This document shows, piece by piece, positions 9,535-44,998 of a stretch of DNA of 64,000 nt. Position 1 is the stretch's first letter. The number at the start of each line of letters is the position of its first letter. The translations under genes were made by a program, and so were the position numbers. The DNA lies in the IMG/VR virus record IMGVR_UViG_3300021431_000084, one strand, 5' to 3'. The notes under the pieces are model-generated. The model made no database searches. It saw only the letters and a list, made by a program, of their open reading frames with translations, and was not told the DNA's origin. This stretch comes from a virus. Taxonomy: Duplodnaviria > Caudoviricetes.

Positions 9535-9801
9535 TTACCTCCAACTTGATCTAACTATCCAACGCTTTCTTCCTTTGTCAAGATATAAAATACCGTGGTC
9601 ATCAAGATCGTACTCAGCCATATTATTAAGTGCCTCCATAGCTTCTTCCTTTGTGTCACAAACTATATCGTAATGTAGAGTTAAGTTACCATGATAACCT
9701 TTGGCAAGACCGGGAGTAAACGCAAACGCGTTCAAATGTCTAAGTATCTTGGACTCAGAAGTATTAAAATCATATGTAGTATATTTATAGTTAAGTAACA
9801 T
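9535..9801 (-). CDS. Hypothetical protein
   Basis: Tightly coupled to the upstream ORF. Confidence 0.6.
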   Translation of the reverse strand: MLLNYKYTTYDFNTSESKILRHLNAFAFTPGLAKGYHGNLTLHYDIVCDTKEEAMEALNNMAEYDLDDHGILYLDKGRKRWIVRSSWR

Positions 9802-9803
9802 AT

Positions 9804-10121
9804 TTAATTCACCCCCATTATCTTGTTCTCGTTCTTGAGTGTCGCATCGACCCTCGCCGCAAGCTCTCCATAAGTTAAAATTCTATTTTGATGTTCATCA
9901 AAATTACCATTATTAAACTCAAATAAAAAATCTTCGTAAGTATAATTGTCATCACACTCACAAAAATTAACTTCTTGTTTACAATGAATACAGTAAAGTT
10001 TTTTTAAATGTCCTTGTTCTCGATACTGACATCGTTTTCGAGCAATATTTATGCCCTTATTCCCACACTTGCAACAATAAAACTCGTGCGAGAAATCAAA
10101 GCTTCTATTTTGTTTTCCCAT
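9804..10121 (-). CDS. Zn-ribbon protein
   Basis: CCKC and CIHC pairs; has its own sigma-A promoter. Confidence 0.6.
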   Translation of the reverse strand: MGKQNRSFDFSHEFYCCKCGNKGINIARKRCQYREQGHLKKLYCIHCKQEVNFCECDDNYTYEDFLFEFNNGNFDEHQNRILTYGELAARVDATLKNENKIMGVN

Positions 10122-33374: not shown

Positions 33375-33566
33375 ACTTTTTACTCCTTTTCTATCATCTA
33401 TATATATTATATCATAAAATTGAAACGTTGTCCATAGAAATTTTTTATTTTCACTATATTTGCTCTCAAAATTTTGAAGAGCAGTTTTTGTTCAGGACAC
33501 GGTTCTTCGTTTGGGTGCGGTGCAAGCAAAACAAAATAAAAAAAAGGGAAGATATTACATCTTCCC

Positions 33567-33982: not shown

Positions 33983-34059
33983 TGGGTGGATAGACTGGAC
34001 TTGAACCAGCAACTACCGGTTCCACAGACCGGGGTTCTACCTATTGAACTACTAACCAC
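33983..34059 (-). tRNA. tRNA-His(GTG)
   Basis: Cloverleaf, CTGTGGA loop, G-1, CCA. Confidence 0.9.
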
Positions 34060-34064
34060 ATATT

Positions 34065-34276
34065 TAGATACAGTATAACTCGGCGCGGTTTACCACACCA
34101 CAAAAGTTAAGGTTAGCAAAATACTTTGCCCATATAGAACTGGCAATTGAATTACGACACGATACATTCAGGATCAGACTCAGACACTTCCGTGCGCTTT
34201 AGCCAAATGTACGATTCAACTCTATACGAAAATCGTTCGCCTCGGTTACCAGCCATTAAACGCCATACTGTATCTA
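34065..34276 (-). ncRNA. Candidate ~210-nt structured RNA
   Basis: Perfect 12-bp closing helix TAGATACAGTAT/ATACTGTATCTA, between RNA genes. Confidence 0.5.
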
Positions 34277-34317
34277 CTGGTGACAAGTTTTTGAAAAGAT
34301 ACCTGACAAACTTTATA

Positions 34318-34464
34318 GTCTTGAGGGTAAGAATTTGCATCTTACATAATACACTTTCAGCATTGGTTTTCATCACTTGCATACGGTAAGTCAATGTTAT
34401 GCCCACAGGACGTTGTGTATCTTCCCATCTTCATCAGCGTTTACCTATTCCGCCACCTCAAAAT
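34318..34464 (-). ncRNA. Anticodon-less tRNA-like RNA, copy C
   Basis: TTTGAGG/CCTCAAG stem, GTGGCGGAATAGGTAAACGC, GTAAGA-TGCAAAT-TCTTAC. Confidence 0.7.
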
Positions 34465-34467
34465 ATT

Positions 34468-34559
34468 TGGCGATGGTACTCAGACTCGAACTGAGACGTC
34501 GCTTACACGACTACTCATGGTTTAGCAAACCACTGCCTTACCATTAGGCTTATACCATC
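34468..34559 (-). tRNA. tRNA-Ser(GCT)
   Basis: TTGCTAA loop, long variable arm, G73, CCA. Confidence 0.9.
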
Positions 34560-34678
34560 ATTAATGACAGCGACTGCACCTTGTACTTCGGCATCGAAAC
34601 TGTTAAATGGTATCGGTGTCGTAACCCCGTCTCCATCAAACCCTTCCGGTTTTCTGCACTCTTTAATTCTCACTTCCT

Positions 34679-34755
34679 TGGCAGCCGCGAAAGGAATCGA
34701 ACCTTTATCTTCTGGTTCAGAGCCAGATATACTGAGCCTTTATACGACACGGCCA
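34679..34755 (-). tRNA. tRNA-Gln(CTG)
   Basis: CTCTGAA loop, CCA. Confidence 0.88.
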
Positions 34756-34778
34756 TTTTAGAAAGAGCAAAGCCCTTT

Positions 34779-35270
34779 CTACTTACTATACTTATTAGCA
34801 ATACCACTTGCGGTATAACTATAAGGCTTAATCAAACAAGTGTAACCGCAAGCAGTTACCCACTTTGTGATTTCATTTATTAACATAGAAGTCTTTCCAT
34901 CTTGTCCAATATCACAATGAATTTGGAAAGTTAAGTCGAGATTATTTATATCAATATCGTATTCATATAAAGCCAACTCTAACTTGTCAACCAAGCCATT
35001 AGCAATCTCAAGACTTCTTGATGTTTCGGTACTGATTTTTTGCTTCAAATTAGAAATTTTACGCATATATTCTATATTATAGAAATATATACCACCATGA
35101 CCTAATCTGTGTACCGCTATAACCTCAACCATTTTTGTTTGTCTGTGGTTTTGGCTATCAGTACCAACAGTGAACTCATAAGTTGCATTAGGTTGGTCAG
35201 CGATGTACTTAGCTATCTTGTTAATAATCTGATCTTCAGTCATTTCTTGACCAGAAGCTGACCTAAACAT
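34779..35270 (-). CDS. RNase H-like YkuK/DUF458 family protein
   Basis: VGTDSQ, HR.G.GG.YFY, IH.DIG..G.T, IKP.S..AS..A.K. Confidence 0.85.
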   Translation of the reverse strand: MFRSASGQEMTEDQIINKIAKYIADQPNATYEFTVGTDSQNHRQTKMVEVIAVHRLGHGGIYFYNIEYMRKISNLKQKISTETSRSLEIANGLVDKLELALYEYDIDINNLDLTFQIHCDIGQDGKTSMLINEITKWVTACGYTCLIKPYSYTASGIANKYSK

Positions 35271-35298
35271 GACAACTTATCTCCTTTCGTTTTTGTTT

Positions 35299-35375
35299 TG
35301 GCACACCGGGAGGGATTTGAACCCATTCATCGTGCGGTTTTGGAGACCGCTGTTTTACCGTTAAACTACCAGTGC
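35299..35375 (-). tRNA. tRNA-Trp(CCA)
   Basis: CTCCAAA loop, CCA end. Confidence 0.88.
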
Positions 35376-35381
35376 ATATTT

Positions 35382-35457
35382 TGGTTGGAAGTGTGAGAGT
35401 CGAACTCACCGCAACCGCTTTATAAGAACGGCCCCATAACCGCTTGGGTAACTTCCA
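35382..35457 (-). tRNA. tRNA-Ile(TAT)
   Basis: CCGTT-CTTATAA-AGCGG anticodon arm, A73, CCA. Confidence 0.85.
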
Positions 35458-35466
35458 GTAAATAAA

Positions 35467-35577
35467 TGGTGCACGAGGTAGGACTCGAACCTACACACTA
35501 CCCATAGTATCTAACATATACCGCGAATCTAATATTAGACTTGTGGGTTAGCCGTCTTCCTGTTGCGGCACTCGTCC
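35467..35577 (-). tRNA. Leu-type tRNA body with expanded/interrupted anticodon arm
   Basis: Acceptor (one mismatch), D-arm, long variable arm, T-arm and ACCA present; the anticodon loop is replaced by about 31 nt containing a hairpin. Confidence 0.65.
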
Positions 35578-35583
35578 ATAAAA

Positions 35584-35668
35584 TGGTGGGCAGGGTGAGT
35601 GTCGATCTCACTATTCCCGAAGGAGTCGGATTTACAGTCCGATGCAGTTGCCGATTTGCTACCTACCC
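35584..35668 (-). tRNA. tRNA-Tyr(GTA)
   Basis: CTGTAAA loop, variable arm, CCA. Confidence 0.9.
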
Positions 35669-35672
35669 GTAT

Positions 35673-35746
35673 TGGAGTCGCATACGAGATTTGAACTCGT
35701 ACTGTCAGTTTGGAAGACTGAAGTGCTACCATTACACCAATACGAC
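35673..35746 (-). tRNA. tRNA-Gly(TCC)
   Basis: CTTCCAA loop, U73, CCA. Confidence 0.9.
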
Positions 35747-35935
35747 TTATAATAATAAAATTAACTTAATCCTTTTGTGCGGTCAGGTCTACGATTGGTA
35801 TCCGCACTTTTTGCTACCTGAATCCTGTTATTGTTTGTCGAACCATTTTTTACAACCTTGCGCCGCAAGGCGGACTCTCTCTCACTTCAATCCGGAACTG
35901 TACATGTCAAGTGAGAGTGACATTGTTAATTTTAA

Positions 35936-36009
35936 TGGTAGCTTCACCGAGATTCGAACTCGAATAGACAATCTTATGAGAATTGTTTGGGAACCAAACC
36001 CATGAAGCC
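35936..36009 (-). tRNA. tRNA-CAT (elongator Met or Ile2), short D-arm
   Basis: CTCATAA loop, GGCTTCA/TGAAGCT acceptor, CCA. Confidence 0.78.
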
Positions 36010-36102
36010 ATATCTCTTATTTTCTATATATATATTATAACATAAAAAATTAGAGTTGTCAAGGAAAATTTAAAGGGCCAACACTAATTGCGCGGCCCCC
36101 GT

Positions 36103-36177
36103 TGGAGTGAGTAACGGGATTTGGACCCGTGTCCCTGCCTTGGCAAGGCAGAATAATAACCACTATACGATACCCAC
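36103..36177 (-). tRNA. tRNA-Gly(GCC)
   Basis: TTGCCAA loop, U73, CCA. Confidence 0.88.
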
Positions 36178-36184
36178 ATTTATT

Positions 36185-36262
36185 TGGTGCTCGCACAAGG
36201 ATTCGAACCTTGGACCCCTTGCTTGTAAGGCAAATGCTCTCGACCAGCTGAGCTATGCGAGC
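36185..36262 (-). tRNA. tRNA-Val(TAC)
   Basis: CTTACAA loop, CCA. Confidence 0.92.
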
Positions 36263-36268
36263 ATGTAA

Positions 36269-36364
36269 ATGACGCTTTAAAGCCTCCCATAGGCGATTAC
36301 AAATTAAATGGCTTGTAATATAAGAATCGAACTTATTGTTAATTTGATTTGCTGTAAGCGTCAT
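36269..36364 (-). ncRNA. CAGCAA-stem RNA E1: Y-RNA-like, circularly permuted tRNA module
   Basis: ATGACGCTT/AAGCGTCAT stem, ACAGCAA, T-arm, ATTACAA-G-CCA, linker, TTGTAAT, D-like hairpin. Confidence 0.75.
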
Positions 36365-36376
36365 AAAAGAAGTTAA

Positions 36377-36473
36377 ATGACCCGAAGTGCTACGGGATTC
36401 GAACCCGCAATGTTTGATTAGCAGTCAAATTGTTTACCATAAACGAGCGTTTTGATTTGCTGATAAGGGTCAC
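36377..36473 (-). ncRNA. CAGCAA-stem RNA E2 enclosing Ser(GCT)-like D/anticodon/T arms
   Basis: GTGACCC/GGGTCAT stem, TCAGCAA, TTTGA-CTGCTAA-TCAAA, GCGGG-TTCGAAT-CCCGT; no CCA. Confidence 0.7.
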
Positions 36474-36749
36474 AAAAAAATAAATTGGGGGAGAGGGAAG
36501 ATAGGCGTTCCCCAACGCAATAGTTCCCTCAGGTGGGCTCTTTTTTACCCGCATCACCCAAGTCCGGAGCGGTACATTGACGGCTGTCCGCAAGCCTCTG
36601 GTGGGGATTTTGAAGTATCCCTAAACTTTAGAATGAGAGAAGTTAAGTTCAAATTTGATATTACGATACTGCCCCGCACCTTTTGGATAGTACTCTCCAA
36701 ATGTTCTTCTCTATTAAACTATCACAAATTTGATACTTAAAGTCCTCGT

Positions 36750-36829
36750 TGGTGGAGGATACGGGCACCGACCCCGTCTGAATTTTCTGCTTGCAAGGCA
36801 GACGACCACTCCGAGCAGTCCCATCCCCC
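36750..36829 (-). tRNA. tRNA-Ala(TGC)
   Basis: G3:U70, CTTGCAA loop, atypical T-loop, CCA. Confidence 0.85.
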
Positions 36830-36836
36830 ATAATGA

Positions 36837-36895
36837 ATGACGCACATAAAAAGAGATTTCAGGTCTTTTTGTTTTTGCTTTGCTGTTGGCGTCAT
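36837..36895 (-). ncRNA. CAGCAA-stem RNA E3 (minimal)
   Basis: ATGACGC/GCGTCAT stem, ACAGCAA, one internal hairpin. Confidence 0.65.
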
Positions 36896-36913
36896 ATAAA
36901 CTAAGTAAAAGTA

Positions 36914-36989
36914 TGGTGGGCCATAGAGGACTTGAACCTCCAACCTTCAGATTAAGAATCTGCTATTCTACCGATTGAATTAATGACCC
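36914..36989 (-). tRNA. tRNA-Lys(CTT)
   Basis: TTCTTAA loop, CCA. Confidence 0.9.
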
Positions 36990-36997
36990 ATATAAAA

Positions 36998-37369
36998 TCA
37001 ATTATCTCTAAAGTGCTTTTCTGCATGACAATTTGCACATAATAATTGGCATTTATCTATTTCTTTATACATTGGTTCTATATCATAATGACCTCTATTG
37101 TATAAAGCCGCTATTTCAAAATCTTTTTCATTTTCATCTATATGATGAAATTGAAGTGCTCCTATACACTTATTATAACCACAAATTTCACATTTTCCGC
37201 CTTTGTATTTAACAAGTTGTTTTTTTATAGCATGACGAATTGCAGTAATAGAAGCCGCTCTTGATTTATTATCATTAAAAGAAGGACTACATTCAAAGCA
37301 ATATTTTCTACTTTCACCATGTGATTTAGTTTCAAAATCTGCTCCACATATTATACATTTCTTTGTCAT
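36998..37369 (-). CDS. HNH endonuclease
   Basis: GGKCEICGY..C..AL.FHH...C.LLCANCH...H. Confidence 0.85.
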   Translation of the reverse strand: MTKKCIICGADFETKSHGESRKYCFECSPSFNDNKSRAASITAIRHAIKKQLVKYKGGKCEICGYNKCIGALQFHHIDENEKDFEIAALYNRGHYDIEPMYKEIDKCQLLCANCHAEKHFRDN

Positions 37370-37383
37370 AATAATTCTCCTCT

Positions 37384-37459
37384 TGGTGGTCAGTGTTGGT
37401 TTCGATCCAACCTCCTATGCTCTTCAGGCATATGCTTTCACCAGATTAGCTTACTGACC
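37384..37459 (-). tRNA. tRNA-Phe(GAA)
   Basis: CTGAAGA loop, CCA. Confidence 0.88.
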
Positions 37460-37466
37460 ATGATTT

Positions 37467-37543
37467 TGGTGCCCAAGACGGGAATTGAACCCGTAAAACC
37501 CTGATTTTGAAACAGATATCTATGCCAATTCGATTACTCGGGC
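37467..37543 (-). tRNA. tRNA-Leu(CAA) lacking a long variable arm
   Basis: Leu-type D-loop GAATTGGCATAGA, TTCAAAA loop, 5-nt variable region, A73, CCA. Confidence 0.7.
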
Positions 37544-37548
37544 ATAAC

Positions 37549-37624
37549 TGGCAGGTCGTGCAGGACTCGAACCCGCAAATACGGAGTAGAAATCCGAGGT
37601 TTTATCCAGTTAGACTAACGACCC
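37549..37624 (-). tRNA. tRNA-Arg(TCT)
   Basis: TTTCTAC loop, A20, CCA. Confidence 0.85.
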
Positions 37625-37631
37625 ATATGCT

Positions 37632-37715
37632 TGGTATCCGTGGAGAGACTTGAACTCTCATGCCGCGAAGCACTAGATCCTTAGTCTAGCGTGTCTGCCA
37701 TTCCACCACACGGAC
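37632..37715 (-). tRNA. tRNA-Leu(AAG)
   Basis: CTAGA-CTAAGGA-TCTAG arm, variable arm, CCA. Confidence 0.88.
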
Positions 37716-37826
37716 ATATAATGTCATTTGCTTTCTCACTCGCAAGTGGTTTGATGCTAACTGCCAATGACTTGACGGGGAGTAGGTTTTCATCTCCCGT
37801 GAACTCCTTGAAGTCCACCCGCTATT

Positions 37827-37902
37827 TGGTGACGCGTGCCGGACTCGAACCGACATCTCCAGCTTGAGAGGCTAGCCACCTATTCCATTAGTAGAACGCG
37901 CC
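37827..37902 (-). tRNA. tRNA-Glu(CTC)
   Basis: CTCTCAA loop, CCA. Confidence 0.87.
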
Positions 37903-37954
37903 ATGTATTAAAGATATTTCCACTTAAAGCCATAAGCAGATCTGTATGTTTTAC

Positions 37955-38028
37955 TGGTGCGGGTAGGGAGAATCGAACTCCCATCTCAAGTCCCCAAAGC
38001 TCGAAGTCTTCCTTTGACCTATACCCAC
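37955..38028 (-). tRNA. tRNA-Pro(GGG)
   Basis: TTGGGGA loop, CCA. Confidence 0.82.
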
Positions 38029-38035
38029 ATTTTGA

Positions 38036-38194
38036 TGGTTAACATCTTGAATATCATAAGAATATTAAACTCTCGCAAGCTTGGTTAATGCATCGTAGTA
38101 ATTCGCCATAATTTTTCACTACTCTTTCATTTGGCGTCCGAACCACTACTTGTTTAATATTTCAAGCACCTTATGATACTCAAGATGCTAACCA
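38036..38194 (-). ncRNA. Candidate ~160-nt rod-like RNA
   Basis: 25-bp terminal helix plus a 10-bp AATATTAAAC/GTTTAATATT helix. Confidence 0.55.
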
Positions 38195-38201
38195 GTTTAT
38201 T

Positions 38202-38277
38202 TGGCACCCCCGGAAGGACTTGAACCTTCAACCTTTCGGTTAACAGCCGCTTGCTCTACCGATTGAGCTACGAGGGT
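38202..38277 (-). tRNA. tRNA-Asn(GTT)
   Basis: CTGTTAA loop, G73, CCA. Confidence 0.9.
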
Positions 38278-38315
38278 ATATTCGGAGCCGTTTAACGTCA
38301 TTGCTCAGGACGCGT

Positions 38316-38390
38316 TGGTTGCAGAGGTGGGAGTCGGACCCACTACTTCAAGGTTATGAGCCTTGCGAACAACCGTTGCTCTTCTCTGCT
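38316..38390 (-). tRNA. tRNA-Met(CAT), initiator-like
   Basis: 1:72 mismatch, CTCATAA loop, CCA; first RNA after a promoter. Confidence 0.8.
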
Positions 38391-38464
38391 ATATCTCTTA
38401 CTTTTTACATATATATTATAACAAATTTTTTCAAGTTTGTCAATAACGATTTTTTTAACAAGTT

Positions 38465-38539
38465 TGGCAGCCGTAATAGGATTCGAACCTATAACTGTGG
38501 TTCCAAAGACCATCGTGTTGCCATTACACCATACGGCCA
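38465..38539 (-). tRNA. tRNA-Gln(TTG)
   Basis: CTTTGGA loop, CCA. Confidence 0.9.
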
Positions 38540-38546
38540 TTACAAG

Positions 38547-38623
38547 TGGTGGGTTTGAGGAGACTTGAACTCCCGCCCCTCTGATTAAAAGTCAGATGCT
38601 GCTACCAACTGAGCTACAAACCC
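38547..38623 (-). tRNA. tRNA-Lys(TTT)
   Basis: CTTTTAA loop, CCA. Confidence 0.92.
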
Positions 38624-38720
38624 ATAAGGTATAAGTACAAACGAAGAAGAAAAAGCGTGAAAAAGAACTATCGTTTGTTGAGTTACTTTTATGAAAAATA
38701 AGTGAGGTACGAGATATTGT

Positions 38721-38805
38721 TGGTGCGAGTAACGGGAGTTGAACCCGTATGAATTTCTTCGATGAATTTTAAGTCCATTGTGTATGCCAATTCCACCATA
38801 CTCGC
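38721..38805 (-). tRNA. tRNA-Leu(TAA)
   Basis: CTTAAAA loop, variable arm, CCA. Confidence 0.9.
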
Positions 38806-38829
38806 ATATTGGAGAGGGCGTGAGCCCTC

Positions 38830-39231
38830 TCAAACTTCATTTATTATTACTGTACCTGAGCCAAAGCAAATTATATGTCTTTGTCCATTTTCATCATCAA
38901 AAAGTATTTGATTTTCTTCATACTCAACATCAAACTTGCCTTGATATTCCTCAATTATATCGCCATTAGCATCATATACAATAACTTGTCTTTCAATACC
39001 ACCATTGAAATTGCTGTCCTGTGTCTTTAATGCTCTTGCACCATCTTCGGTATTATGGTAATACCAAGCAGTACCTCCCCATAAAGTAGCAGTTACTATA
39101 AAAGTAACAAAGACAGAAATTATCGTTCCAATAAAACTACATTCATCATAGGCTGTATATGCAATAAAAGCCCCCAAACCTACAATACAAAATGTAAATA
39201 TTAAACAAAGAACAACTGCTCCAAGCGTCAT
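38830..39231 (-). CDS. Membrane protein (2 TM) with soluble C-terminus
   Basis: Two hydrophobic segments; R...VYD.NG..I..Y.GKFD. Confidence 0.7.
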   Translation of the reverse strand: MTLGAVVLCLIFTFCIVGLGAFIAYTAYDECSFIGTIISVFVTFIVTATLWGGTAWYYHNTEDGARALKTQDSNFNGGIERQVIVYDANGDIIEEYQGKFDVEYEENQILFDDENGQRHIICFGSGTVIINEV

Positions 39232-39470
39232 AGTAAGCCATTCTCTCTTTCTTCGGCAACCTGTTGAGAAACAACAGTAAACATCTGATCAAAGAAATGA
39301 ACCGGATCTACACCATGCTTCTCACACCAAGTATGTACGGTTGCACAAATGGCCGCAGCCAATCCAGTATCGGTTTTATACTTTTCAATGATTCGAGTTA
39401 ATTCATCAAAATTCTCGTAATCAGGAATAAACATATTCATTAACAACTTACCAAAATCGACATCGTTCAT
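39228..39470 (-). CDS. Hypothetical protein
   Basis: Follows a promoter, GAGG RBS. Confidence 0.6.
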   Translation of the reverse strand: MNDVDFGKLLMNMFIPDYENFDELTRIIEKYKTDTGLAAAICATVHTWCEKHGVDPVHFFDQMFTVVSQQVAEERENGLL

Positions 39471-39556
39471 AGGTATTAAACCTCTTTCTTATTTTTCTTA
39501 CATATATATTATATCATTTTTTTTCTTGTTTGTCAAGAAAGATTTTTCTGTGGAGA

Positions 39557-41056
39557 TTATCTCTCCACAGAAATTTGTGCATATCTATCACTTAAGATAG
39601 TGGCAAGCATAGCCTCATAAGGTGTCTTATCAAGATTAGCAAGCAAAGTCTTAAATGTAGTTGCAGAGTGACCAGACAAAAGCTGTACGCCCTTTCTGTT
39701 GGCATCTGCATGGAATGTGTCAGACTGGCTGTTTACATTCCAGAAGATGACGTTAGGAATATCGTAACCGTAGTTAGCGAACTTTCTTCTCCAATCATCA
39801 TAGAATGTACCAGAAGCACGAACACAGCCGTTAATCTGCATATCAGAGATAATTACGAGTGCCTTAGGAAGATCCTTAGCGGCGATACGGTTGTTAACCG
39901 CAGTCTCAAGAACTACTCTGAAAGCAGCATCAAGATCTGTACTTCCAGCCCAATCTGCATTAACCATGTTACGAACTCTATCACACACAGTAGCACCTGT
40001 TACAGTAACCAACTTAGGGTTAGTAGAGAAAGTCATGAACTTATTGTGGAAAGGGCCGGTCGCACGCTCTGCGAAGTACATCGCCAAGCCAACAGAAGAT
40101 GCCATAGGCAAGTTGTTGTTGCTAGTCATAGAACCAGATACGTCTGCCATAATGAGTACGTTTGTACCGTCCTCAACATAGTTAGGAAGTGCCTTCCACT
40201 GGGCCTCAAGTACATCGTCTACTGTGCAACGAGAGTTATACCAAAAGCCATAACCACCAGCATTAAGATACTTCTGGACAATATCATAAGGGAAAAGAGT
40301 ATTAGCCTTAATCTCCTTCTTACCAGACTTTACATCATCGAGATACTCAACGAATCTTGCACCGTCCTTGCGTGAGAACAAGTTACGATACTTAGTCATA
40401 GCATTAGAAGGAACCTTATCATATGCGATAGTGCTTAACTCATTTGCAGAGATAGCAATCTCAACAATCTTAAGATACTTACGAAGTGCCTTAAGAGGTA
40501 CCTTAAATGAACGAACATTCTTAAATCCCAACTTCTGGGAAGTCAAAATGCCCAACTTACGAGTTGTAGGTGAAGATGCGTCAGGTGTCTTGATCCACTT
40601 CGCAAGAAGTGAAACAGGCTTTCCGGCAAGCATTGCTGCTCTATCCTTCTCGAACTGCTCCTTCATAACTCTCCACATATCGTTCTCACACTTAGTTCCG
40701 ATAAGGAAATACAAGTCATCAAAACGACCATAGTAACCAATAAGACCAATGTTAGGTCTTACAATCTCAGGATATCTATCTGCTGCATATGCAAGCAAAG
40801 TACGGAAAGTATCTCTCTCTCCGAGACCCTCACGAACATCTCTTCCGTAGAAGAGTATCTTTGCGGCGAGCTCCTTGTCCTCTGCGCAGGCTCTGTCGAA
40901 AAGCTCGTATCTACGAGCATCAGGAGCATTACGAAGTGCTCCAATAGTAGCGAAGAGGTCTACAAGACCCTCACCTGAAGATGACAAGCACTTTCTACCA
41001 TTAGCAGTAGAAGTCCAAGAAGTCTCTCTACCAAGTAAATCTGCGAAATTAGCCAT
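39557..41056 (-). CDS. DUF2828-family TROVE/Ro60-like protein with C-terminal vWA domain
   Basis: T.NG.....SS....VDLF, K.LFY.RD.R.G.GER..F, GRFDDL, SLLAKW, I.Y..VPS.AM, EAQW..L, MIDAS DVSGS, ISDMQ, IFWNV, LSG.S. Confidence 0.88.
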   Translation of the reverse strand: MANFADLLGRETSWTSTANGRKCLSSSGEGLVDLFATIGALRNAPDARRYELFDRACAEDKELAAKILFYGRDVREGLGERDTFRTLLAYAADRYPEIVRPNIGLIGYYGRFDDLYFLIGTKCENDMWRVMKEQFEKDRAAMLAGKPVSLLAKWIKTPDASSPTTRKLGILTSQKLGFKNVRSFKVPLKALRKYLKIVEIAISANELSTIAYDKVPSNAMTKYRNLFSRKDGARFVEYLDDVKSGKKEIKANTLFPYDIVQKYLNAGGYGFWYNSRCTVDDVLEAQWKALPNYVEDGTNVLIMADVSGSMTSNNNLPMASSVGLAMYFAERATGPFHNKFMTFSTNPKLVTVTGATVCDRVRNMVNADWAGSTDLDAAFRVVLETAVNNRIAAKDLPKALVIISDMQINGCVRASGTFYDDWRRKFANYGYDIPNVIFWNVNSQSDTFHADANRKGVQLLSGHSATTFKTLLANLDKTPYEAMLATILSDRYAQISVER

Positions 41057-41088
41057 TGTCTTTTCTCCTTTATCGCTTTAGTTTTTAG

Positions 41089-41176
41089 TGGCGCTGTGGG
41101 AGAGATTCGAACTCTCAGAGCTTTCACACCCGACGGTTTTCAAGACCGCGCCTCCTCCCCACTAAGGTACCACAGC
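41089..41176 (-). tRNA. tRNA-Ser(TGA)
   Basis: CTTGAAA loop, long variable arm, G73, CCA; directly upstream of the DUF2828 gene. Confidence 0.88.
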
Positions 41177-41429
41177 GTATTTATTTCTTTAACTTTTGTA
41201 TATATATTATATCAAAAATTTTCTTGTTTGTCAATTAAAATTTTTTAGACAAATAAAAAATGTAGGTTTTCCGCACTTCCGTCAATTTCCATGCTTGGTG
41301 CTTACCCACTATTGGAGATAACTCCTCAACGCGACCTACAAACCCTTTGACTCTATGCCGGTTGTGTTCAGATACCGGAAAACTTTTTGGGGACTTTGTT
41401 TTTATGACGTTGCTCCAACCCTCGTCAAG

Positions 41430-41504
41430 TGGTGCTTGCAGCAGGAATTGAACCCGCACCCTCTGTTCCGTAGACAGAAAGTCTATCCTTTAGCCTATGC
41501 AAGC
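41430..41504 (-). tRNA. tRNA-Arg(ACG)
   Basis: CTACGGA loop, A20, CCA. Confidence 0.9.
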
Positions 41505-41663
41505 ATTATTTTCTTTTTTCAACTGATGTTTGGCTTCTTCAAGCCAATCACAATATTGAGTGAAAGAACATTCTGAATAAAAACAATTTGGTGAGTGTCT
41601 ACGAGAACACATACAACAATGTTTTGTATAAACTATATCTTGAGCCTCCATAAACACTCTCCT

Positions 41664-42395
41664 TTATGCGTAAATAACTGTTTTATCTTCAAGGCGAATT
41701 GCCGCAAGCTTTCCTCCTGCGAATACACACCCACAATCTATATTGATACTATGTTCTCTGAAATATACATCAGACTTATTAGTATCATTCCATACAAATT
41801 GTGTAGGTGTATGCCCATGAATAAGAATTTCCTCATGCTCAGGCACATAATCATTGGTTAATACATTCGTATAATTGTTAATATCACGATACCAAAGAAT
41901 ATCATCACGATTAAGATTAGGACCATACCAAGCATGAGCAATTATATAATCTTGTTTATCTTTAATACTAACCTTTTTATATAAAGGCAAAGAAGAAAAC
42001 CAATCTACTATTGGTTTTACTGAAGCAACTGTATCAAACCCAGCTTCAGACATATAAGACACAAAGTCATAAGTACAATCAAGAGCTGAAATATCAAAAT
42101 CGTCCATACTTTGTATAGATGGAGAACACCAACCTTTTAAAAATCTACGATAACAACGATTATAATCATTGATTATATTGTCCTCATGATTTCCACATAT
42201 CATTTGGTATTTACCATCTTCGGTGACATGCTCCATGGCCCATTGAATCATTTTATATGACTCAACTCCACGGTCAATAATATCACCTATCAAAATGATA
42301 CAATCATCTGGTTCAATATCAGGCATTGATAAGAGTTTCATAAATCTTGTATAACAACCATGAATATCACCAACAACCCAAGTAGCCATAAACAT
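41664..42395 (-). CDS. PPP-family Ser/Thr phosphatase-like metallophosphoesterase
   Basis: GDIHG, GDIIDRG, GNHE, HGHTP, IDCGC. Start reset to MFMATW (the ORF-track start overlaps tRNA-Cys). Confidence 0.88.
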   Translation of the reverse strand: MFMATWVVGDIHGCYTRFMKLLSMPDIEPDDCIILIGDIIDRGVESYKMIQWAMEHVTEDGKYQMICGNHEDNIINDYNRCYRRFLKGWCSPSIQSMDDFDISALDCTYDFVSYMSEAGFDTVASVKPIVDWFSSLPLYKKVSIKDKQDYIIAHAWYGPNLNRDDILWYRDINNYTNVLTNDYVPEHEEILIHGHTPTQFVWNDTNKSDVYFREHSINIDCGCVFAGGKLAAIRLEDKTVIYA

Positions 42396-42412
42396 ATCTC
42401 CTTTCTTTAATT

Positions 42413-42490
42413 TGGAGCTAATGGTGGGATTCGAACCCACGAAACAACAGTTTTGCAAACTGAGGGCTTAAACCACTTACCTACATTAGC
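42413..42490 (-). tRNA. tRNA-Cys(GCA)
   Basis: TTGCAAA loop, U73, CCA. Confidence 0.85.
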
Positions 42491-42496
42491 ATTTAT

Positions 42497-42616
42497 TGGT
42501 GGAAACTGTTGGATTCGAACCAACTCCGCTGCTCCCCAAGTGCATAGAAAACAAGTTGCTGTCTTAATCATAAACATGATCGCGTCTTAAGCGTGCTACC
42601 TTTACACCAAGTTCCC
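42497..42616 (-). tRNA. tRNA-Pro(TGG)-like gene with a ~46-nt ACAGCAA-containing insertion
   Basis: Intact acceptor, D and T arms and CCA; removing TTAAGAC...TTTTCTA restores GCTGC-ACTTGGGGA-GCAGC. Confidence 0.68.
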
Positions 42617-42631
42617 ATATATTGTTTTAGT

Positions 42632-42708
42632 TGGTGCGTACACTTGGACTTGAACCGAGGACCTCTCGCTTATCAGACGAGTGCTCTAACCTACTGAGCT
42701 ATGCACGC
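42632..42708 (-). tRNA. tRNA-Ile(GAT)
   Basis: CTGATAA loop, CCA. Confidence 0.92.
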
Positions 42709-42821
42709 ATAATGATTCAGTAACCACTCGCGTCCCACCACCCTGTTTCATGTGCCAAAGCCTTGTCCGTTACTGAAAGGTACTGGTTTGGTTTAACCTC
42801 CTGAAGCCAGTAAAAGGGAGG

Positions 42822-42897
42822 TGGAGCTTCCAGTGGGGCACGATCCCACGACCTAGTGATTACTAATCACTCGCTCTGCCAACTGAGCTACGGAAGC
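42822..42897 (-). tRNA. tRNA-Thr(AGT)
   Basis: AGTGA-TTAGTAA-TCACT arm, CCA. Confidence 0.87.
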
Positions 42898-42903
42898 ATT
42901 AGG

Positions 42904-42979
42904 TGGGGCTGGAGGTGAGACTTGAACTCACAACTTGAAACTTACAGGGTTCCCGCTCTACCATTGGAGCTACTCCAGC
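42904..42979 (-). tRNA. tRNA-Thr(TGT)
   Basis: CCTGTAA loop (C33), CCA. Confidence 0.82.
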
Positions 42980-42985
42980 GTGTAA

Positions 42986-43075
42986 ATGACCCCAGACGCG
43001 GTTTCTTCAAAACCGCTTAAAAAACAATGGCGAAGAAAAAATATTTAATCAAGATTGTTTTGCGGTTGAGGTCAT
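42986..43075 (-). ncRNA. CAGCAA-stem RNA E4
   Basis: ATGACCTC/GGGGTCAT stem, AACCGCAA, internal GCGGTTT..AAACCGC hairpin. Confidence 0.62.
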
Positions 43076-43083
43076 ATATAAAA

Positions 43084-43260
43084 ATGACTGATAGGGACTA
43101 CTTTCTCAGATTTCTGGCGAGTCTACCCCAGTGTGCCTTTTCTGGATAAAAGTTTCATAGGAATAATTTTAGCACTTTTATCAGTCTGCATTTCCCATAT
43201 TTGCATAGTAGAATTTTATACTATAAACCATTTTAATAGAATTTGCAGTTAATCAGTCAC
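43084..43260 (-). ncRNA. CAGCAA-stem RNA E5 (long)
   Basis: GTGACTGAT/ATCAGTCAT stem, AACTGCAA. Confidence 0.62.
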
Positions 43261-43265
43261 AAAAA

Positions 43266-43340
43266 TGGCGGTGATACGGGGAATTGAACCCCGGTCTCTC
43301 GGCTGACAACCGAGTATGATTACCACTATACCATACCACC
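43266..43340 (-). tRNA. tRNA-Asp(GTC)
   Basis: TTGTCAG loop, G73, CCA. Confidence 0.9.
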
Positions 43341-43551
43341 GTATAAATGCCCCGTAATATAAATCTGGTATACCAAATATAATATCTACGAGGACTTTAG
43401 GAAATTGAGTTACCTATGTACTCCGATTACGCAACGTGAATTCCCTATACGCCTGCGACATCATTTTCACACAGTACAAACTGGTCGGTTGATGTTCACC
43501 GCTAAATTGCTAAGTTTAATGACATTGGCGGGTCAATATAATTAAAATAAA

Positions 43552-44268
43552 TTATATACTATTCCATTCTTCATCACTATAAGAGTTTATCTCTTTTTTA
43601 GTGCGAGGTAAATCAAGTTTATCACAATATTTTCTAATAGCATTATCAGAACAATTAAATTGTTTACCTATTGATGTAAAACTCTGTTTTCGTATTAACT
43701 CTTTTAACACTTCTCTTGACATAGGAGCCTCTTCAGCTCTTGCTTTACCAGCACAACTTAAACATCTTATACTGTTTTTGTCAATTTCTTTTCCACAATC
43801 TATACAATAAGTTCTCTTATCTTCTTTTTTAAGATTTTTAGAACCGGTTGTAGGTAATTGCTGATTACAATTAGGACAAACCCATCTGAGATTTTCTAAT
43901 CTATCATCATTGTTTATACCATTTATATGGTCTAAAATAAGAGTTAATTCTTTTCCTTGCCATATAGGTTCTAAATTACAAATAGAACATTTGTATTCAG
44001 AATATTGACCTTTAAGATAAAACTTTCGTAATGTACTTTGGTCAGCCGTAGAATTTAGAACAAAAACATTTTCTTCTGTTCTTTTTATTCCGGGTTTTTT
44101 AACCTTTAAATTAGATACATCTATTTCTTCTTCTTCTATTCTTTTTCTTAAAGAATTATAGCTATCTCCACTTGCTGATATACCTAATTTACGCAAGACA
44201 TCTTTATAAGAAGAACTATTTTTTATTATGTTTTGCAATTCCTCTTTTGAATATTGACTTAACTTCAT
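43552..44268 (-). CDS. HNH homing endonuclease
   Basis: CSIC..W.G..L.L.LDHING...D.R.ENLR.VCPNC; extra Zn finger and HTH. Confidence 0.88.
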   Translation of the reverse strand: MKLSQYSKEELQNIIKNSSSYKDVLRKLGISASGDSYNSLRKRIEEEEIDVSNLKVKKPGIKRTEENVFVLNSTADQSTLRKFYLKGQYSEYKCSICNLEPIWQGKELTLILDHINGINNDDRLENLRWVCPNCNQQLPTTGSKNLKKEDKRTYCIDCGKEIDKNSIRCLSCAGKARAEEAPMSREVLKELIRKQSFTSIGKQFNCSDNAIRKYCDKLDLPRTKKEINSYSDEEWNSI

Positions 44269-44357
44269 TTTATTTTTCTCCTTTTCATATTATTCTCTAA
44301 TATATTATGAAAATTCGAACTAAAGTTTTTGAAGTTTTTGTCCAAAAATTGGTTCGA

Positions 44358-44435
44358 TGGTGACGCGTAGGGGGCTTGAACCCCTAATCTTCGGGTTGAA
44401 GGCCCGATGTGTTGGACCAGTTCCACTAACGCGCC
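44358..44435 (-). tRNA. tRNA-Glu(TTC)
   Basis: TCGGG-CCTTCAA-CCCGA arm, CCA. Confidence 0.85.
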
Positions 44436-44738
44436 ATGTAAATGGCTTTAAGGTCAGCCAACCACACATCATTTGCCTTAAAGTATTCAGATTTTGTTAT
44501 CTGGTCCTGTCGGGTTGTTTAAAGTCATTATTCATACTCTACCTGTCCCGACTTACAGACCACCCAAAGTGTTAGCCGTTGAATAATGACTGTATAAGTT
44601 ACTGGCTTATTTAACGTCCACGACCTTTAGAAACTTATTAGAAGGACAAACGCTTTATCATATCTCTTAACTTTCTTACATATATATTATATCATATTTT
44701 TTGAAAGTTGTCAATTAAGATTTTTTGGTTAAGAATTT

Positions 44739-44913: not shown

Positions 44914-44998
44914 CCTTCTTAACTTTTGTATATATATTATAACATAAAAATTTTTCTTTGTCAAAGAAGATTTTTTTAGGGGTGTATAAGTATATAAA

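Follow-up and report, generated by a model that had tools for sequence, protein, structure and literature searches.

A 96-nt element on the minus strand of a phage tRNA cluster is, in our judgment, probably a Y-RNA-like partner of a Ro60-like phage protein, built with a tRNA-like module of the YrlA type. That the element (positions 36269-36364) is a real structured RNA gene is very likely. The argument draws on its fold and on the conservation of that fold, on a family of small RNAs that share its outer part (which we call the handle), on the linkage of that family to one protein gene, and on the predicted structure of the protein.

The element lies in a 64,000-nt stretch of viral DNA, the whole of which was analyzed (the window) and which looks like a portion of a large phage genome. 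The long open reading frames (ORFs) of the window are all on the minus strand and include gyrase A and B, PhoH, a sigma factor, tail-fibre-like proteins, and HNH endonucleases; relatives of the window's proteins are found on gut and rumen metagenome contigs of 80 to 390 kb. A megablast search with 4 kb of array DNA against 50,697 phage records gave zero matches. ARAGORN, run on the whole window, called 32 tRNA genes on the minus strand, 31 of them within 33983-44435, and a whole-window Rfam scan at gathering thresholds returned tRNAs and no other family. A sigma-70-type promoter upstream (Table 1) probably drives the tRNA operon that includes the element. No terminator was predicted on the minus strand between this promoter and the element, and the element is likely to be co-transcribed with the tRNAs.

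Several other features of the array deserve a record of their own. The array is split into short operons by seven copies of a 61-nt promoter cassette, each with perfect -35 and -10 hexamers, an extended TG, and then an A/T-alternating run (33386-33446, 36014-36074, 38395-38455, 39488-39548, 41186-41246, 44666-44726, and 44916-44976). An 80-nt tRNA-Ala(tgc) at 36750-36829 (minus strand) is called by ARAGORN while the Rfam tRNA model is silent at threshold; it is kept in a related locus, L025, and its D region is unusually long. Between a tRNA-like gene and the handle RNAs lies a noncoding segment of about 270 nt (window 36480-36750, minus strand; L025:13990-14240), with a G+C content above that of its surroundings. 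The segment is well conserved in L025, Rfam returned nothing above noise for it, and it is probably a further structured RNA. A PF04308 "RNaseH-like" gene occupies the same array position in three related phages (window 34779-35270, minus strand; L025:15287-15778; L055:15014-15505), and its product is a possible RNA-processing partner. In two related phages (L052:13602-14045 and L053:13716-14156), SmpB genes lie inside tRNA arrays about 2 kb downstream of the DUF2828 gene discussed below, which hints at phage tmRNA systems beside the Ro60-like module.

An earlier note, made from the sequence alone, had parsed the minus strand of the element as a T arm, a 7-bp acceptor-like stem, and a D-like hairpin enclosed by a closing stem. 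This parse is correct letter for letter, and all four helices are those of the minimum free energy (MFE) structure predicted by ViennaRNA. The MFE is -21.1 kcal/mol (z = -2.9), and 1 of 200 dinucleotide shuffles was as stable. The acceptor-like hairpin (AS) abuts the T stem with a 0-nt spacer; the CCA in its loop occupies 36309-36311 and is followed by a 6-nt linker. After the D-like hairpin come four bases and then the 3′ half of the closing stem. The two ends of the RNA make a plain stem of 9 bp; there is no anticodon arm or anticodon loop, and neither ARAGORN nor the Rfam tRNA model called the element a tRNA. Since the D loop has only 5 nt, a genuine T/D elbow is not assured.

Table 1. Features of the window discussed in the text; positions are those of the window
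Feature	Position	Strand	Basis or remark
Closing stem (9 bp), 5′ strand, with conserved G-A-C near its base	36356..36364	-	MFE fold
Handle motif ACAGCAA, unpaired, 7 nt, directly 3′ of the stem strand	36349..36355	-	Recurs in many lineages
Single-stranded linker after the motif, to 36337 (19 unpaired bases including the motif)	36337..36355	-	MFE fold
T arm: 5-bp stem closing in G-C, 7-nt canonical-type T loop	36320..36336	-	MFE fold
Acceptor-like hairpin (AS): 7-bp stem (8 with a G-U), 10-nt loop opening with G-CCA	36296..36319	-	MFE fold
D-like hairpin: 4-bp stem, 5-nt loop with GGG; 1 base after AS	36282..36294	-	MFE fold
Closing stem, 3′ strand	36269..36277	-	MFE fold; 6 nt before tRNA-Val (starts at 36262)
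Sibling handle RNA with near-complete mini-tRNA body	36377..36473	-	ARAGORN tRNA-Ser(gct); L025 ortholog Cys(gca)
Sibling handle RNA, 59 nt, simple: stem, motif, variable loop with small hairpin	36837..36895	-	R1 match, E 0.016
Sigma-70-type promoter, consensus 12/12	38415..38443	-	Next such promoter at 36034-36062
DUF2828 + DUF7788/vWA protein, 499 aa, proposed partner	39557..41056	-	Pfam, PHROG, predicted fold
Sibling handle RNA, motif variant with C at third position	42986..43075	-	Stem-plus-motif frame
Sibling handle RNA, 177-nt body, motif variant with U at third position	43084..43260	-	Stem-plus-motif frame

The closest relative is an ortholog at L025:14363-14464, next to a DUF2828 protein 87% identical to that of the window. 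All 25 base pairs are unchanged in it; the 10 alignment columns that differ are substitutions or indels in the linker, a hairpin loop, and the post-D segment, and they spare the pairs. More distant cases came from a descriptor search of about 2.3 Mb of loci, which required a T arm, an abutting hairpin, and a GG-containing D-like hairpin 1 to 3 nt further on and demanded neither the closing stem nor the handle motif. It gave 44 distinct matches, mostly tandem tRNA gene junctions, and two further handle-bearing cases, L046:2180-2296 (minus strand) and L017:9794-9908 (plus strand). Every helix in these two RNAs is standard-paired yet differs in sequence from its focal counterpart. The T stem runs into the next helix with a 0-nt spacer, and 2 nt then lead to the D arm, comparable to tRNA positions 8 and 9. 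The AS stem, unlike the focal one in sequence, has 6 bp in L046 and 7 bp in L017; the D loops are longer than the focal loop and contain GG. Each of the two adopts the permuted layout when folded alone. L017 has an additional hairpin ahead of the T arm, in the place of the YrlA V arm, and lies 93 nt upstream of its DUF2828 gene. L046 was found via the RNA alone, and its 137.7-kb contig has, 10 kb from the RNA and in the same orientation, a gene for a DUF2828 homologue of 33% identity.

The 7-bp acceptor-like helix of the earlier parse is kept in L025 and L017, and in L046 it has 6 bp, not 7. Because L046 and L017 keep the layout with all pairs standard and helix sequences that differ, the permuted elbow is a conserved design, found in three independent lineages and in these only. 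A fold better than that of shuffled sequences, together with two distant handle-bearing cases, is beyond chance. A strict descriptor of the permuted form matched the focal RNA, its L025 ortholog, and L046 only, and L017 was missed at E ≤ 10 by a covariance model, R1, made from two sequences that are nearly identical. We also tried a gapped pattern (motif, T loop, and part of the AS stem) on viral contigs and rejected it, as it matched mostly one unrelated coding sequence, with L046 the only relevant match.

The closing stem and the ACAGCAA that follows it form the handle, which is common to many small RNAs; the window holds the focal RNA and four more (Table 1). In loci obtained via the neighboring protein, the same stem-plus-motif frame recurs on the gene strand. 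The majority letters ahead of the motif are G at -9, G-A at -7/-6, and C-U-U at -3 to -1. Complementarity is kept across 85 distinct handle stems. In an alignment of 31 RNAs, which was fitted to model R1 and is for that reason biased towards structure, 8 of the 9 closing-stem pairs vary on both sides, and pairing holds in 93% of cells. The covariation observed was reached by 0 of 500 shuffles, and slid controls were far off. The G-C pair at stem position 3 and the A-U pair at position 4 hardly vary among the 31 R1 matches. G-U pairs in these stems would be A-C mismatches on the opposite strand, which points to an RNA of the tRNA sense. A loose scan for a stem with a 6-nt motif had given chance matches on both strands, and stricter rules were adopted.

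What the handle encloses differs from one RNA to another. The commonest handle RNA is about 60 nt in total, with nothing but a loop as its cargo; other cargos are an anticodon-like stem-loop, a T arm alone, a near-complete tRNA body, and the permuted elbow of the focal RNA. Among close relatives, 60-nt handle RNAs have a 4- to 5-bp/7-nt anticodon-like stem-loop in which the "anticodon" is UUU, GCU, or GUU (L001:8626-8685, L002:9849-9910, L003:9841-9901, and L008:9847-9908). What we call the 53% clade also has tRNA-shaped RNAs with normal ends and acceptor, D, and T arms, in which a capped handle stem with its motif sits in the anticodon/variable-arm region and the cap loop is close to GUUU. 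These unpermuted RNAs (L002:9630-9745 and 9746-9845; L001:8300-8530; window 42497-42616, minus strand) were not called by ARAGORN. The focal element is indeed circularly permuted relative to them. Homology between its AS helix and a similar 6-bp helix of theirs was considered, but the two stand at different places in the fold.

The gene to which the handles are linked encodes a 499-residue protein that matches PHROG 850, "RNA-binding protein," over its full length. We modeled it with AlphaFold2 from an alignment of 44 homologues (pLDDT 88, pTM 0.88). The 12 best Foldseek matches of the model in the PDB are all Ro60/TROVE structures, from Thermus phage phiLo, Xenopus, human, and Deinococcus; they are full length, with E values of 2e-8 to 3e-4 and TM scores of 0.43 to 0.57, and the next matches are isolated vWA domains at a TM score of 0.24. 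VIA-align gave the same picture, with a Z score of 18.2 over 411 residues to Xenopus Ro60, Ro60 structures in all of the top 10 places, and then vWA-only matches at Z 8.7. The hallmark of Ro60/TROVE, a ring of helical repeats followed by a vWA domain with a MIDAS, is present in the predicted model, and the MIDAS-type D-x-S-x-S (D305, S307, and S309) is invariant among the 44 homologues. Identity to Ro60 is 12 to 18%, a match at the level of fold only. By sequence the ORF did not match Pfam TROVE (PF05731) even at E ≤ 10, giving only DUF2828, DUF7788, and a weak vWA match, and phmmer against PDB sequences found nothing at E ≤ 1. On full-length matches to Ro60 structures, yet with no TROVE membership by sequence, the model places the protein as Ro60-like at the fold level, from a family annotated as unknown. 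In Atlas feature and shape searches, DUF2828 clusters were viral, Bacillota, and plant-labelled only.

The focal element lies 3,193 nt downstream of this ORF on the same strand. Across the collected loci the association is much closer: a sense stem-plus-motif occurs within 600 nt of the gene in 95 of 104 DUF2828 loci and an antisense one in 0 of 104, counts that are not independent events because most loci were obtained via the protein gene and a single clade supplies many of them. No more than 600 nt upstream of the gene lie 117 of the 195 distinct sense elements, and 0 of 43 antisense elements are within that distance of it; 30 of the 31 R1 matches are on the gene strand. The association is seen with proteins 69, 65, 63, 53, 50, 40, 39, and 36% identical to that of the window. 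In a reverse test with a 15-nt handle pattern, 39 of 112 loci had a same-strand DUF2828 gene some 150 nt downstream. Those exact matches in gene-less contigs that we read were inside coding-looking sequence, and we set them aside as chance for that reason.

The leader of the DUF2828 gene in the 53% clade is itself a handle RNA, whose 3′ stem strand ends 4 nt before the ribosome-binding site (L002:9918-9983, L003:9911-9984, and L008:9919-9983). A position just before the ribosome-binding site fits a protein-binding site and suggests that the protein may autoregulate its own translation.

Shared residence in tRNA arrays could by itself create such a linkage, and we considered that the handle RNAs might be processing or stability cassettes of tRNA operons. 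They would then be spacers for RNase P, RNase E, or RNase Z, guiding or buffering these enzymes, or would be bound by some other host or phage factor, and their proximity to the gene would be incidental. All members do lie between or beside tRNA genes on the tRNA strand, the focal 3′ stem strand stops 6 nt before tRNA-Val, and the handle RNAs of the window are 2 to 3 kb from the DUF2828 gene and do not adjoin it. In most lineages, however, the handles are not spread over the arrays; they cluster within 600 nt of the gene start (in L021, just past the gene stop), and one copy is the leader of the gene itself. The conserved unpaired 7-nt motif and two invariant pairs also resemble a specific binding site, and the protein has the predicted fold of a known small-RNA-binding ring. 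We therefore regard the cassette explanation as unlikely.

The nearest known RNAs are the YrlA RNAs, Y RNAs of bacteria and mycobacteriophages. Their tRNA-like module runs in the order V, T, acceptor-like stem-loop, D, and their genes lie within 4 kb of that for Ro60, on the same strand (PMC4201824). They are bound by Ro60/Rsr, carry tRNA-type modifications (pseudouridine 55 and dihydrouridine), and have a 5′ motif, GNCGAA(N0-1)G, that is the likely Rsr contact (Chen 2014, PMC4201824). The focal RNA resembles YrlA (RF02553) in having a terminal stem formed from both ends that encloses a T arm, an AS stem-loop, and a D arm in that order, and the L017 RNA shares the V-like hairpin ahead of the T arm as well. 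The gene on the same strand within 4 kb of the focal RNA is DUF2828, which is Ro60-like by predicted fold but may not be an ortholog of Rsr. The focal RNA differs in the sequences of its T and D arms, in its 5′ end, where the G-A-C stem and then ACAGCAA stand and there is no GNCGAA-type motif, in its partner, which by sequence is not Rsr/TROVE, and in the many other cargo modules that the phage handle bears. When 1.1 kb and 124 nt around the element were searched with the Rfam YrlA model, the focal RNA gave no match at E ≤ 10, and at that cutoff Rfam as a whole, YrlA included, found nothing credible around it. L046 does align end to end with Rfam YrlA at 30.2 bits, for which the gathering threshold is 69 (E = 8e-4 in 3.2 kb and 4e-5 in 151 nt). 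Of the YrlA-type architecture that the earlier note had proposed, the T-AS-D order inside a closing stem stands, and membership in the Rfam family, the 5′ motif, and a TROVE partner do not. The focal RNA would work in the manner of YrlA, yet it does not belong in that family.

Partner RNAs have already been described for phage Ro60 proteins (PMC4201824, PMC12135203, and PMC7824862). Thermus phage phiLo encodes a Ro60-fold protein with small RNAs, Yrl1 and Yrl2, alongside it (PMC12135203; PDB 9KOP and 9L5Y), as our phage appears to do, and the phiLo structure is one of those that our AlphaFold2 model matches best, at only about 17% identity. Yrl1 and Yrl2 are unlike the focal RNA in that a CGAA motif was the basis for choosing them and no likeness to tRNA is described (PMC12135203).

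From these comparisons we propose how the system may work. The element would be made within the phage tRNA operon as a small noncoding RNA and freed by tRNA-processing enzymes. In known particles, Ro60 binds its Y RNA by the terminal stem, while another part of that RNA brings in other factors or gates their access. In the same way, the handle, that is, the G-A-C/G-U-C stem core and ACAGCAA, could dock on the DUF2828 ring. The cargo would be a tRNA elbow in permuted order, with the T arm stacked on the AS helix and the D-like hairpin giving its GG to the T loop. To an enzyme that recognizes tRNA (for instance RNase P, a T-loop modifier, the CCA-adding enzyme, or exonucleases like PNPase), the surface of such a cargo could look like that of a tRNA; alternatively, it may serve as plain nuclease protection of the RNA.

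A tRNA-like cargo also invites the idea of a decoy, a tRNA mimic that soaks up a host tRNA-directed defence nuclease or modifying enzyme and that the Ro60-like protein at most stabilizes. The cargos copy various parts of tRNA, among them the elbow, anticodon stem-loops with varying anticodons, and whole bodies, and the phage has 32 tRNA genes of its own. When a phage has many tRNA genes, the usual interpretation is that they make up for lost host tRNAs. The focal module, however, is without an anticodon arm, the usual target of anticodon nucleases, and no defence or counter-defence gene was identified adjoining the element. We consider a decoy quite unlikely as the whole explanation, although it overlaps the Y-RNA-like reading and does not exclude it.

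Circularly permuted tRNA genes occur in Cyanidioschyzon merolae and some other algae, with the T-arm side encoded before the D-arm side and the acceptor ends joined by a linker. They give rise to normal tRNAs, the anticodon arm being restored at the termini, with the eukaryotic/archaeal splicing endonuclease. The focal RNA is like these genes in that its T side precedes its D side and a short linker joins the acceptor ends, but it has no anticodon loop, and its termini are a plain stem. Were it a true permuted tRNA gene, its ends would be joined or held by the stem, and opening of the loop at the CCA by RNase P with 3′ trimming would yield a chargeable molecule, either in two pieces or re-circularized. 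The 7-bp acceptor-like stem followed by G, CCA, and a 6-nt linker is what one would expect of such a gene, and the tRNA genes of this phage likewise encode CCA in the DNA. There is also a precedent: the YrlA of Mycobacterium smegmatis has a 7-bp stem as well, which makes it a substrate of RNase P; it is cut in vivo and given CCA, and both halves remain Rsr-bound (Chen et al. 2014, PMC4201824). In contrast to that RNA, the focal one already has the CCA encoded in its loop, and the CCA is not conserved in its distant homologues. The internal CCA singled out in the earlier note is present in the focal RNA and in its relative from L025 and is missing from the loops of L046 and L017, and any given triplet would follow a stem by chance in about 1 of 64 cases. 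With no anticodon arm and a 5-nt D loop besides, a true permuted tRNA gene is improbable.

The earlier note had also raised two points about the history and fate of this CCA. It is plausible that the module arose when the 3′ end of one tRNA gene was joined to the 5′ end of the next, since the tRNA genes of this phage encode the CCA. The suggested opening by RNase P to a chargeable end did not hold up in the same way: it stays speculative because the CCA is retained only in the close relative, and, its sole basis being the analogy with M. smegmatis YrlA, we would call such cleavage improbable too.

A decayed or rearranged tRNA remnant, or an inverted repeat at the DNA level with no RNA function, might be expected in a dense tRNA array prone to duplications and rearrangements and in AT-rich sequence that readily makes hairpins, but it fits the data poorly and is very improbable, given that all helices are kept while loops change, that distant phages have the same layout in other sequences, that G-U pairs are valid on the tRNA strand only, and that the strand bias is strict.

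This leaves the Y-RNA-like reading as the one we prefer, and one lead may carry it beyond phages. The sole Rfam family that touches the handle is the Class I RNA of Dictyostelium (RF01414), at 12.7 bits for the focal RNA and 17.1 bits for a neighbor against a threshold of 41.5. Class I RNAs are about 60 nt long, with a covarying stem that joins the ends, an invariant 5′ G, and beside the 5′ strand an 11-nt unpaired motif in which positions 3, 6, 9, 10, and 11 are invariant; outside these features the RNA is variable (Kjellin et al. 2021, PMC7919456). They come with a promoter element of their own, an RRM protein is known to bind them, and no counterpart is known outside dictyostelids (PMC7919456). 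In the family consensus the motif comes after a terminal stem of 6 bp, and the focal RNA has the same letter at 10 of the 11 motif positions, including all five that are invariant in dictyostelids. The handle RNAs are alike as well in their end-joining stem, in the unpaired motif after its 5′ strand, in the variable rest, in their usual size of about 60 nt, and in the majority G nine bases before the motif core. Class I RNAs are unlike them in being eukaryotic, in a size range of 42 to 65 nt compared with the 96 nt of the focal RNA, in scores that fall below threshold, and in having no known DUF2828 link; a literature search on the DUF2828 domain names returned nothing relevant. The likeness may be convergence or chance, and a real connection between the handle and Class I RNAs is doubtful, though worth keeping in view. 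With similar reserve we offer a wider conjecture, also rather doubtful, in which the handle would be the recognition element of a widespread, unrecognized Ro60-like branch (DUF2828 in phages, Bacillota, and eukaryotes) and Class I RNAs would be its Y-like eukaryotic counterparts. If this is true, the phage family shows a ribonucleoprotein swapping its cargo (tRNA elbow, anticodon arm, whole tRNA bodies) on one handle, and if the Class I likeness is real, it suggests a partner protein and a mechanism for eukaryotic RNAs that have neither and whose role has been sought since 2004.

Animals, some bacteria, and a few phages are known to have Ro60/Y-RNA particles, and one motif and one protein family were the route by which the RNA partners in them were discovered. 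The RNAs described here point to a second handle, unrelated in sequence, and to a divergent Ro60-like protein, common in gut phages and annotated solely as a domain of unknown function. Interchangeable tRNA-like modules on one handle give DUF2828 a testable function, and the many unexplained tRNA-like genes in phage tRNA arrays gain a possible purpose. The family amounts to a natural cargo-swap series in which to ask what the tRNA-like part of a Y RNA does.
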